This document shows, one piece after another, positions 40,977 to 50,571 of a stretch of DNA of 64,000 nt. Within the stretch, counting starts at the first letter, position 1; each line of letters begins with the position of its first letter. A program made the translations under genes and the position numbers. This DNA is from Mobula birostris (lineage: Eukaryota). The stretch is from NCBI RefSeq assembly GCF_030028105.1, contig NC_092380.1, positions 29,289,144 through 29,353,143 of the forward strand. Direction: 5' to 3'. Under the pieces are notes generated by a model. The model was not told the origin of the DNA and did no database searches. It saw only the letters and a list, made by a program, of their open reading frames with translations.

Positions 40977-41884
40977 AAGTCCCACCAAGTCCAGCTCCTT
41001 CACTTTTCCTGCCGACAAGCAACTCACTGATGGGGTAGACCTACAGTACTTTAAGTTCTTAATGTCCAGCACCATCTTGTGATCATAAAAAATTTTTTTT
41101 AAAGACAGAATACAGAATATATCGGTTGACCCTGTAGCACTGCGTCCGAGCACACCTCCATTTCACTGGAGTTGGTGTGCTGTCAGAACGAAGTGCAGAC
41201 ACTGTACAGTCAGAGGCTGAACCAAATCTTTGAGAGCTGGTCGTCACTTTGTGCAGCCTTCCCATTCAAGCATCAGAACCAAGGTCACCAAGAATGTCAA
41301 GATAAAGATGCAAACAAAAGATTGTTGGAAAAACTGCAGTTCGTGGAAAGTTATTTTATTGATCCTCTAGTATTATTGGCAAATAACATGCAGATTTAAT
41401 TGCTTATTAACTCTTGAAATATGCGTTATGATTGATACTTAAACAGGAAAATGATGGAATTCAGAAGTGTACAGTCTCTATTTGATCAATATCTGTATCC
41501 AAAGAGACAATTTCTGCATAAAAATGGCATTTCTCTGTTCAGACTTAAAAAAAGTGTGGTGACAGGGGGATAGCTGTTCTCTTCCTGCACAAATACACAC
41601 AGTGAAACTGAAGAATGATGCAAGTTTTCAGAGTTCCGTTAATCGGTGATGACACTCTTAGGCAATTATGTACACATACTCCTAGGTCTACAACATCTGT
41701 CCTGCAACACTCCCCCATCCCCCAGTCCACAACTGTTCACTGCCATTGTCATGTGTACTGAGATACAGAAAAAAGCTTTCTTTGCATACCATCCAGACAG
41801 AGTACTTCAAAACTTAAGTACGTTGAGGTAGTACAAAAGGGAAAAGAAAAACAGAATGCAGAATATATTATTACATCCACAGAA

Positions 41885-44800
41885 TGTCACAACCATGGAT
41901 TCGGCAGCGCAGTAGATACGGCAATTGTGCTTTTGAAAATGCACATGTCAGCTAATTATTATTTAACTGTGATAGTATTTAACTCCATACTTGTTGTAGT
42001 GCTTGTCGAGACTTGGCCAGGACACAGCAACGCTTCGTTGCCTGCTTTCATTCCACTTTGCCTGAGAAATTGGACTGTCGAGTCAACTGACTCTGAAGAC
42101 TAGCGGTATTCATTTTATTCTTAGTTGCCAACAACCTGTCTCTGAATGTGAACAAAACAAAAGAGATGGTTGTTGACTTCAGGAGGACATGGAGCGACCA
42201 CTCTCCGCTGAACATCGGCGACTCCTCTGTAGAGATCGTTAAGAGCACCAAATTTCTTGGTGCTCACTTGGCGGAGAATCTCACCTGGTCCCTCAACACC
42301 AGCTCCATAGCAAAGAAAGCCCAGCAGCATCTCTACTTTCTGCGAAGGCTGAGAAAAGTCCATCTCCCACCCCCCATCCTCACCACATTCAACAGAGGTT
42401 GTACTGAGAGCATCCTGAGCAGCTGCATCACTGCCTGGTTCGGAAATTGCACCATCTCGGATCGCAAGACCCTGCAGCGGAGAGTGAGGTCAGCTGAGAA
42501 GATCATCGGGGTCTCCCTTCCCGCCATTACAGACATTTACAGCACACGCTGCATCCATAAGCAATCAGCATTATGAAGGACCCCACACACCCCTCATACA
42601 AACTCTTCTCCCTCCTGCCATCTGGCAAAAGGCACCGAAGCATTCGGGCTCTCACAACCAGACTATGTAACAGTTTCTTCCCCCAAGCCATCAGACTCCT
42701 CAATAGCCAGAGCCTGGACTGACACCAACCTAATGCCCTCTACTGTGCCTATTGTCCTGTTTATTATTTATTCTAATGCCTGCATTGTTTTGTGCACTTT
42801 ATGCAGTCCTGGGTAGGTCTGTAGGCTAGTGTAGTTTTTGTGTTGTCTTGCATATTTCAGTATAGTTTTTGTATTGTTTCATGTAGCACTATGGTCCTGA
42901 AAAAAGTTGTCTCGTTTTTACTGTGTACTGTACCAGTAGTTATGGTCGAAATGACAACAAAAAGTGACTTGACTTGACTTGTTCTTTTCAGCCACAGCGT
43001 AGCCTTCATTTTCCATTTGAGAGTTTTAGGTTACGGCCCGGTTTGGCTGAGCATTTATTGCTTTCTTTTCCCTTTAACACCGTTGGCATTAAAGTCTGTG
43101 ACCTATCGACCCACTTCAGTGTCTCTCACTCTGCACTTCGCCCATATTCGCATCGGGTGACAGCAAGTCTCGACCAAGTGACACCGTGAGACAAATCATT
43201 CTCAATGAGAACTCTCGGATTGGAGCTAATCTGGCATCTGCTTCAGAAATAAAACTAACACAGAATCTGAATTTATCAAAATAAACTTAAACTTAAACAG
43301 AAAGCACCAAGAAACCGCATTACAAAGAGCGAGTGGCTTATGAAAAACACAAGAAACTCTATATCCATTAATAACTGTTAAGCAACAATTAACCATTTCA
43401 GGTGTTTTAAAAATCTCAGAGCCCAAATGCTCTCTGATGCCCTGCACAGGCCTGAAGTCACTAAAGGACCACCCCCACCCCCCCATACCTGGCACCTGAT
43501 GGCCCAGGAAGACCTGAAAACTCGAGATCTAAGGATGACTCGAGATACTTGGGGAACTCGAGAGGGAGGGAGACTTGGGGATCCAGAAAGACTGAGAGAC
43601 CTGGGAACCCCAACAGACTGAGAGACTAGGGAACGTCTAGTGAGATCAAGAAACCTCAGGTGGGCCGAGAGGGAGGCTTGGGAATCCTCGAGTTGGGAAG
43701 GACATTGAAAAATCCTAAACACACTGAATGAGCCTTGGAAACAATCGGAAAAATAAAAACCTTGGGAACATCGAGAAAAGTCCTTGGGAAACCTTGAAAA
43801 CATGAAACTTGAAATTTAGAGAAGGAACCTTTTTAAATCTTGTTCCCAGTGTTTTATCTTTCACAATTTTTCCAGGCAATTAGGATATACTCCCAGTTTT
43901 ACTGATCAATGCAGTATAGACAGGTTTCTTCCATCGCAAAGCTAGCTGGGTCTCTGTAGATCTATTTAATTTGCTACATTAAAGTCCAATTTTCCCAGTT
44001 TGTACCATGACTTTCATCAAGAGGTTAAAAATACTCTTTTATAGGGTTACTTTACTTGTGTATTTGCACACTCCAGTCAAGGATCAGCTTTGGGAGTAGG
44101 GCTCTTCCACAATTTAGACTATTGACTTCAATAATGATTTGTTGTATCAATTGATAAGCTTGCTTGAAGTGCTCATTTGTTATGCAGATGTGAGTCACGG
44201 GACCACAAAGCTGGGAGCCTGGGTACTTGGGACTTGAAAAGCTTGGAATGGATACCAGAGAAACTCAATGTTGACTAGAGAAGCTCGGTACGTAGACTTG
44301 GAACTCTCGGAATGTAGAGTCAGGACAGGCATTGAGAATAGAAGGCACCCTCTCCTCAAGCCATCAATGTCAATATGTCACTGTTCAAACTTTGCTGGGT
44401 CCATTACTTGGCAAGATCCGTCTATCACGCTGCAGACAGAAACAAGAGTTCATACATAGGAATTCCAACGGAACATTGTTGCCTCGATGAATCACTCTGA
44501 TCAATGAATCTCATGGCCAATGTCTCTCCGCTGGGTCCATCTTTGTGTGGTCGAGACTTGCTGTCACCTGGTGCAAATATGGGCGAAGTGCAGAGTGAGA
44601 GACACTGAAGTGGGTCCATAGTTCGCAGACTTTAATGCTAACAGTGTTAAAGGGAAAAGAAAACAATAAGTGCTGGGCCAAACAGGGTTGTTAACTAAAA
44701 CTCTCAAAAGGAAAACGAAGCCTATACTGCAGCTGAAAAGAACAACTAAGAATAAAATGAATATCACTAGTCTTCAGAGTCAGTTGACTCAACAGTCCAA

Positions 44801-44988
44801 TTTCTCAGGCGAGGTGGAATGAAAGCAGGCAGCAAAGAGTTGCTATGTCCTGCGCAAGTCTCGACAAGCACTATGACGACAAGTATGGAGTTAAATACTA
44901 TCACAATTAAATAATAATTAGCTGATGCGTGCATATTCACAAGCACAATTGCCGTATCTACTGTGCTGCCAAATCCATAGTTGTGACA
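41885..44988. mobile_element. Element bounded by two inverted about 425-bp LTR-like repeats (Tf1/sushi-like)
   Basis: 41885-43162 (minus the Rex insert) is the reverse complement of 44562-44988; each is TGTCA...TGACA and followed internally by GCAAGTCTCGACCA; flanks CAGAA and CAGAC. Confidence 0.88.
42128..42981 (+). mobile_element. Rex1/Babar LINE 3' fragment inside the left LTR
   Basis: NLSLNVNKTKEMVVDFRR...[26 protein letters not shown]; (GACTT)n tail; the empty site is seen in the right LTR copy. Confidence 0.92.
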
Positions 44989-44999
44989 CAGACAAAGTG

Positions 45000-48889: not shown

Positions 48890-49513
48890 ATGACCGAGAC
48901 CGCAGAAGTGGCCCCACCAGCGGCACCCGCCTCTGCAACCAAGGCTGCCAAGAAGAAGAAGGCGGCCGTCCGGACCAAGTCAACCGGTCCCAAACTGGGC
49001 GATCAGATCGACAAGATTGTGGCCGATTGCCGCAGTCAGCGAGGGGTGTCCGTAGCCGCGATAAAGAAGAGTTTGGCCAGCAGCGGCGTCGATGTACAAA
49101 AGCTGAAAGGTCAGATCAGGATGGCCATTAAAAGGAAATTGGATAAAGGCACCCTGGTTCACACTAAGGGCGCAGGTGCCTCCGGCTCCTTGAGAGCCGC
49201 TAAAAAAGAACATACCGGGAAAGTCGTGAAAAAAGCGAAGAAACCAGCGGCCAAGGCATCTAAGACCAAGAAGGCAGTGACCAAGAAATCTGTGGCCAGG
49301 AAAACAGGTGCCAAGAAATCTCCCGCCAAAACCAAAGGGGTTAAGAAAACTGCGGTTAAAAAAGCGGCAGCTAAGAAAACAGCGACCAAGAAGACCGCGC
49401 AGAAGCCCAAGAGTCCGAAGAAGGTCGCAGCCCCCAAGGTGGCCAAGAAGTCGGCAAAACCCAAGCCGAAGGCAAAATCTGTGAAAGCCAAGGCAGCGGC
49501 CAAAAAAAAGTAA
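48890..49513 (+). CDS. H1: Linker histone H1 with divergent globular domain
   Basis: MTETAEVAP N-terminus, globular domain ending KGTLVHTKGAGASGS, long Lys/Ala-rich tail with SPAK and SPKK; stem-loop downstream. Confidence 0.95.
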   Translation: MTETAEVAPPAAPASATKAAKKKKAAVRTKSTGPKLGDQIDKIVADCRSQRGVSVAAIKKSLASSGVDVQKLKGQIRMAIKRKLDKGTLVHTKGAGASGSLRAAKKEHTGKVVKKAKKPAAKASKTKKAVTKKSVARKTGAKKSPAKTKGVKKTAVKKAAAKKTATKKTAQKPKSPKKVAAPKVAKKSAKPKPKAKSVKAKAAAKKK

Positions 49514-49546
49514 ATAAGAAATCGCTCTTATAAACCTGAAACCAAC

Positions 49547-50154: not shown

Positions 50155-50571
<417 letters not shown>

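Follow-up and report, generated by a model that had tools for sequence, protein, structure and literature searches.

An inverted-LTR copy of a non-autonomous, self-priming Gypsy chromovirus in Mobula birostris and further loci of like build

Architecture of the window element

The window analysed here is a 64,000-nucleotide stretch of Mobula birostris DNA (contig NC_092380.1), and all positions given without a locus name refer to it. At positions 41885..44988, a non-autonomous, self-priming Gypsy chromovirus is present as a dead copy in which two LTRs face each other. The parts of the locus are as follows.

41880..41884 (+): left TSD copy, CAGAA
41885..42124 (+): inverted short-arm LTR, U3 and start of R, with a TATA-like box at LTR position 92 and the self-primer motif at about 121
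42125..42978 (+): later, 5'-truncated LINE insertion in the left LTR, boundaries uncertain by 3 nt
42979..43162 (+): remainder of the inverted LTR (R-U5), ending in TGACA
43163..43176 (+): PBS copy that ends the short arm, with 8 nt of microhomology to the interior at its end (43169-43176)
43177..44547 (-): non-coding interior, first 1371 of about 1570 nt, opening with a gag-like MDPAE remnant at 44540
44548..44561 (-): predicted self-priming PBS, with an 11-nt complement to the LTR's R start
44562..44988 (-): original 5' LTR, 427 bp
44989..44993 (+): right TSD copy, CAGAC

An earlier, sequence-only reading of this DNA had described inverted repeats of about 90% identity here, and the facing arms were indeed found in the pairs 41885-41997/44876-44988, 41997-42127/44743-44873 and 42979-43176/44548-44745. 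In a global alignment the two arms are identical at 393 of 438 columns (89.7%, K2P 0.11), and an 854-nt insertion is present in the left arm alone. This insertion gives a match to Pfam PF09004, carries a (GACTT)n tail and shows a 3-nt TTG overlap at its ends; we take it to be a piece of a 'Rex/Babar' LINE. Each arm runs from TGTCA to TGACA and continues into an identical 14-mer, as the same reading had reported, and its gag-like start is correctly placed at the ATG at 44540 on the minus strand. None of the seven ORFs in the interior gave a Pfam match that reached the cut-off.

Read along the minus strand, the copy consists of an ordinary 5' LTR, the PBS, 1371 nt of interior and then an inverted PBS and LTR, and it lacks the last ~190 nt of the interior, the PPT and the 3' LTR. 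It is an aberrant product of a direct-LTR family rather than an intact member, and it is an old singleton, dead and without known function. The element lies ~4 kb from two ORFs (48896-49516 and 50161-50571, both on the plus strand) that read by eye as histone H1 and histone H3.

Target site and flanking host repeat

The flanks CAGAA and CAGAC agree at four of five positions, a level that was reached by 5 of 272 flank pairs mismatched across loci. The host repeat runs ...TTACAGAG|AAAGTGCAGTG with a single CAGAG, and the window has two near-copies there. A strict pattern search found the arrangement of one CAGAG followed by AAAGTGCAGTG in 6 of 29 host repeat copies. Past its first ~13 nt, the right flank matched none of these 29 copies by BLAST (E<0.01), and read-through of the host repeat therefore holds for a short stretch alone. 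The proposed 5-bp TSD with one mismatch thus stands, and the proposed continuity of the host repeat across the insertion is shown over ~13 nt.

In public runs, available as short contigs, the fold junction at 43176/43177 was bridged by none of the contigs listed. The X1/X2 contig (396 nt, 0 differences) and the X5 contig from organism B (400 nt, 7 differences) each cover the left flank and 28-29 nt of the LTR, which is below our 31-letter rule for bridging. With overlaps this short, the contigs only hint that the insertion is common to a relative.

Structure of the parent family

A first look at the 4.0-Gb genome returned 3995 candidates for the LTR and 1862 for the interior, figures that are not copy numbers. 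Full-length interior matches have the order LTR-PBS-interior (~1570 nt)-PPT-LTR with the LTRs as direct repeats, with the exception of L033. Autonomous copies of ~5.3 kb have in common with the non-autonomous ones the LTR and, within the interior, ~60 nt at the start and ~90 nt at the end; apart from these two ends, the non-autonomous interior (43177-44547 in the window) is essentially unrelated to the autonomous one. Broken natural ORFs of three autonomous copies (L124, L125 and L244) yielded Pfam matches above the cut-off for RT_RNaseH, Integrase_H2C2, SH3_Tf2-1 and Chromo, and matches under the curated cut-off for Retrotrans_gag, RVT_1 and rve. The matches to gag, RT, RNase H, integrase and chromodomain in the autonomous copies follow the Gypsy order.

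The 14-mer that follows each LTR holds an 11-nt perfect complement of an LTR motif 32 nt downstream of the start of the TATA-like box. The PBS and this R-start motif are paired in both the MFE and the centroid fold, with a whole-fold z of only -1.8. From its complementarity we read the 14-mer as a self-priming PBS that would pair with the predicted R start inside the LTR, a role that the sequence-only reading had overlooked. We rejected a tRNA-type PBS: the reverse complement of the 14-mer begins with TGG, but where the PPT and gag lie dictates the opposite orientation, and the complement of the 14-mer is present within the LTR. Among direct elements, which were paired automatically, flanks agree at four or five of five positions in 16 of 26. 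Minisatellite expansions with units of ~39 nt and ~44 nt occur inside autonomous and non-autonomous interiors (L150, L157, L201; L090, L264). Three loci (L200, L220 and L245) have a tandem LTR-interior-LTR-PBS-interior arrangement with the middle LTR in common.

The window junction and the kinship of its two LTRs

Where the window junction lies, the listed direct copies have TGGTCGAG or a closely related variant, followed by ~185 nt, the PPT and the 3' LTR. The 8-nt microhomology at the window junction is the reverse complement of the PBS end. A 160-nt query spanning the junction matched end to end at the window alone among the 40 scored of 1109 candidates, and the other 39 scored matches cover the interior and the microhomology, bar one, which is the window's own right LTR. 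Since its junction was found once, the window copy is not a family, and the earlier suggestion of a non-autonomous inverted-LTR family fails for this element, whose parent family has direct LTRs.

The two window LTRs lie at a non-CpG distance of 0.065 from each other, compared with 0.074 and 0.068 to the nearest of 206 other LTRs, and an allele common to both was seen in 0 of 203 others. These private resemblances argue that both LTRs derive from one template. Direct 5'/3' LTR pairs have a median non-CpG distance of 0.10 (26 pairs) against 0.065 in the window, which puts the window copy close in age to the younger direct copies. The other alternative raised by the sequence-only reading, a single cDNA with two U3 ends integrated as a unit, is supported by the TSD and by the private alleles common to the arms, and is further backed by the microhomology junction and by independent loci of like build.

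Other loci with two U3 outer ends

An inverted build with U3 outward at both ends was found at 18 loci and in eight junction types, the window included. The 17 further loci are spread over many contigs, and they add at least 16 U3-out copies to that of the window in the same genome. A genome count of inverted-LTR loci with locus-specific TSDs had been proposed as a check on the window structure; flanks agreeing at four or five of five positions mark an own TSD at 15 of the 17 testable loci, the exceptions being L033 (3/5) and L245 (0/5), and L282 is without one end. The junctions other than that of the window are listed here.

L018, L381: interior 623 joined to LTR 333, 7-nt homology
L143: interior ~668 joined to PBS+3, 5 nt
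L296/L308: autonomous interior ~1350 joined to PBS+4, ~4 nt
L033: 35 nt into the 3' LTR joined to LTR 411
L215: leader ~70 joined to LTR ~397, 4 nt
L278-L287 (ten ~670-bp mini copies): leader 75 joined to LTR ~170
L245 (right part of a complex locus): interior 606 joined to LTR 104

All short arms start at LTR base 1, and they end at about 104, 170, 335, 397, 411, 430, 432 and 441. The short arm passes the PBS in none of the eight junction types (at most 441 nt) and ends at 397-441 in five of them, a ceiling with a probability of ~1e-5 under a crude uniform random-breakpoint model. Where junctions were compared with the parent sequence, microhomologies of 4-8 nt were found, along with a 12-of-13-nt one at 10 loci; a 7-nt one occurs at two. 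Searches for recurrence covered the junctions of the window, L143, L033 and L215, none of which recurred among 40 scored candidates each. The L018 junction recurs at a locus ~15% diverged.

Long-arm breakpoints cluster at interior 606-668 (L018, L381, L143 and L245) and at leader +70 to +75 (L215 and the mini copies). One of these clusters lies just past the palindromic AGCTAGCT; both may mark RT pause sites or accessible RNA. Several candidates were rejected as fold-backs: an inverted LTR pair on C6 (L005/L006) belongs to a 99% identical inverted segmental duplication over 5.6 kb, L232 is a solo LTR flanked by a TSD of its own, and at the left of L245 an element is nested in opposite orientation. 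At L121/L122 (C6:2158000-2177999), an LTR of the window family sits within an inverted segmental duplication whose copies are 99% identical over at least 5.6 kb.

For an unbiased sample, we searched with an exact LTR-end+PBS pattern, which gave 78 matches in 77 elements. Classes were assigned by eye from BLAST tables, and the 76 PBS-bearing elements besides the window comprise 58 direct, 4 inverted and 14 unclassified copies. The inverted four include a conversion-linked pair (L242/L243). Inverted copies cannot collapse to solo LTRs, so 4/76 would overstate the rate per insertion. From the other element end, 62 exact PPT+LTR matches comprise 39 direct, 20 unclassified, one U3-out (L033) and two other mixed loci, and an intact U5 on both outer sides occurs at none of these 62 PPT-anchored loci. 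Direct copies with internal deletions are common. At L324 (C4:10568000-10574999), two 3' halves of an autonomous copy stand back to back, the mirror of the window polarity, with arms of more than 1 kb and one outer LTR mostly missing. This junction of opposite polarity implies that other routes to inverted structures exist, and the locus shows that long inverted arms can persist.

Ten mini copies with one junction

The ten ~670-bp inverted-LTR mini elements (G000; C38 x2, C30, C1 x3, C11, C4, C20 and C22) have one junction and separate TSDs. At the junction, leader AAGCTACAGGCA stands against LTR complement AAGCAAACAGGCA, and the LTR register is kept across the bulged homology in all ten. If the minis arose separately, the kept register points to the U3-anchored strand as primer and fits an RNA template that was later degraded; under a common origin it tells us little. 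A single LTR subfamily, which also has ordinary autonomous copies, gave rise to all ten, and the 12-of-13-nt homology lies in its R region. Their divergence is star-like, with two U5-end haplotypes that both also occur in ordinary copies, and across the ten copies no non-CpG column splits long from short arms.

The arms of one mini locus have more minor alleles in common than arms across loci (P=0.001 for all sites, P=0.12 for non-CpG sites only), and later gene conversion between arms could be the source of this sharing. L278 and L279, 3.3 Mb apart on C38, are ~10% divergent over their first 350 nt and show five differences in 240 nt across the junction. Their near-identity is confined to a tract of ~250 nt, which suggests non-allelic gene conversion. 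A mutation disabling the decoy PBS does not unite the minis; it is found in two of ten, inside the conversion-like tract.

A hot spot is the simpler reading of the recurring mini junction, ahead of a self-propagating mini-element. The notion of an inverted-LTR family falls for the window junction; one sister junction does occur at 10 loci, which a hot spot explains at least as well. We regard as unlikely a stronger version, in which reverse transcription routinely makes TIR-bounded, TSD-flanked units and the ~670-bp, ten-copy sister kept propagating in inverted form, with a helper plus strand priming on the inverted 3' arm. If true, this would amount to a genuine LTR-to-TIR transition and would open a path to Ginger1-like ends in one step, a path that takes no more than a like slip in an integrase-bearing copy.

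A proposed plus-strand switch and its alternatives

We think it likely that a nascent plus strand primed ectopically on the element's own sense strand and gave a cDNA with two U3 ends, which integrase inserted normally. The strong-stop plus strand, U3-R-U5-PBS, ordinarily transfers by PBS pairing (available text of PMC6088434). At the window junction, plus-strand strong-stop DNA (U3-R-U5-PBS) would have annealed via the 8-nt stretch to the sense strand, probably RNA, in place of its normal pairing with the minus-strand PBS. Backward extension of the annealed strand would then give an ectopic minus strand, another strong-stop molecule would complete the other end by normal PBS transfer, and the integrase of the autonomous partner would insert the linear DNA with its two U3 ends. 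A like slip would recur wherever the plus strand meets an inverted microhomology. Fold-back of the long plus strand onto its own 5' end would yield an identical product and is a possible alternative.

At its longest (LTR plus PBS, at most 441 nt), the short arm is as long as plus-strand strong-stop DNA. The precise TG/CA termini, together with a 5-bp TSD, lead us to infer integration by the family integrase. With neither PPT nor 3' R, the window copy is expected to be a dead end. What we observe are products alone, from which the strand-switch steps are reconstructed with no intermediate seen. It counts against the proposed switch that the window junction, which has the strongest perfect homology (8 nt) and lies where strong-stop DNA naturally ends, was seen once. 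The opposite polarity of L324 and the flank agreement of 3/5 at L033 and 0/5 at L245 also weigh against it.

Host repair might have used microhomology to link two broken cDNA pieces, both left ends, ahead of integration, or might have rearranged the locus afterwards. Short microhomologies are also typical of host end joining, and both the L324 junction, with its other polarity and long arms, and the abundance of internally deleted direct copies fit such repair. Repair leaves the short-arm limit of 441 nt in eight of eight junction types, and the five ends at 397-441, unexplained, and a post-integration inversion would need a breakpoint precisely at the terminal TG, within the TSD, at 15 loci; we consider this origin improbable. 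Two copies inserted tail to tail at one target, with later loss of the centre of an unstable palindrome, would likewise leave U3 ends and one TSD, and inverted tandems of LTR elements are reported from Drosophila (available text of PMC5932611). Under such a history, arms should be of any length and U5-out dimers roughly as frequent, but 0 of 62 PPT-anchored loci have two intact U5 ends and no intact inverted dimer was seen. It would hardly yield one junction at 10 dispersed loci and another at two, and we rate double insertion as very improbable.

That the window element belongs to an inverted-LTR family transposing as a unit, in the manner of a MITE or Ginger, gains some appeal from ends that fit TGTNR (available text of PMC2836005) and from the sister junction at 10 loci with separate TSDs. 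However, the junctions of the window, L143, L033 and L215 are each unique among 40 scored candidates. The minis are also unlike cut-and-paste products of one master, with no fixed arm difference and with allele sharing within loci, and L278 and L279 are close only in a ~250-nt tract that looks like gene conversion. For the window copy this reading is already close to refuted, and we hold it to be highly improbable. Misassembly of the window locus could be argued from the want of a listed contig across the fold junction, but the arms are 10% apart, the LINE lies in one arm only, a TSD is present, and 17 other loci of the build occur on many contigs, which makes an assembly error scarcely credible.

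Relation to known elements

The window family resembles the Tf1/Sushi (V-clade) Gypsy chromoviruses in its TG...CA LTRs, 5-bp TSD and PPT, in having no tRNA PBS, in its 11-nt PBS complementary to the R start, and in a partner with SH3_Tf2-1 and Chromo domains. The self-priming arrangement is described for Tf1 and Tj1 (available text of PMC4600332) and for the Tf1/Sushi group (likewise in part, PMC6317226). The difference is that the window copy and at least 16 others have a second LTR that is inverted and U3-anchored, with no U5 outer end. By these features the parent family is a probable non-autonomous derivative of the Tf1/Sushi group, and we read the window element as the product of a recurrent replication error in a known element class. 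Internal inversions are known among defective retroviral proviruses.

The TGTCA termini of the window element fit the TGTNR of Ginger1 and Ginger2, and the available text of the Ginger paper proposes that Ginger1 TIRs might stem from two opposed LTRs through separate insertions, with the chain of events unclear (PMC2836005). Here, by contrast, a single insertion event yields both inverted ends, and the TSD is 5 bp, compared with 4 bp in Ginger1 and Ginger2 and 5 bp in TDD-4/5 (PMC2836005, same text). The window element also differs in having no transposase, arms that are recognisable LTR pieces and no sign of excision. The sequence-only reading had entertained an intermediate between LTR retrotransposons and Ginger-like transposons. 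We found no transposase and no sign of cut-and-paste, so the element is not a Ginger transposon. Between the arms of the 17 fold-back units that have U3 on either side, no integrase region was found, and the intermediate is unsupported.

Like DIRS1-like elements, the window element is a retroelement bounded by inverted terminal repeats. DIRS elements have a tyrosine recombinase, internal complementary regions and no TSD (available text of PMC3266345), whereas the window element is flanked by a TSD and has a partner with a DDE integrase, so it is not DIRS. The inverted tandems of Drosophila also place two LTR-element ends in inverted orientation at one site, but they consist of two whole elements with target sequence at the junction (PMC5932611, available text). 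The window element has a microhomology junction, and its short arm stops at or before the PBS. Supplemental Table S2 of that paper lists inverted tandems and may bear on two-U3 insertions. We found no description of two-U3-ended LTR insertions in the literature searched, a body that excludes most subscription papers and all supplements.

Implications

The genomic evidence indicates that, in the germ line, DNA ending in U3 on both sides is probably an acceptable substrate for a Gypsy integrase. The inverted plus-strand switch is no freak event, with 4 of 76 other PBS-bearing copies in the unbiased sample. One slip of reverse transcription may give an LTR element TIRs and a TSD, compared with the two insertions suggested by Bao et al. 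(available text of PMC2836005). Programs that look for direct LTRs would miss U3-out copies, which software for TIRs or MITEs would wrongly annotate as DNA transposons.
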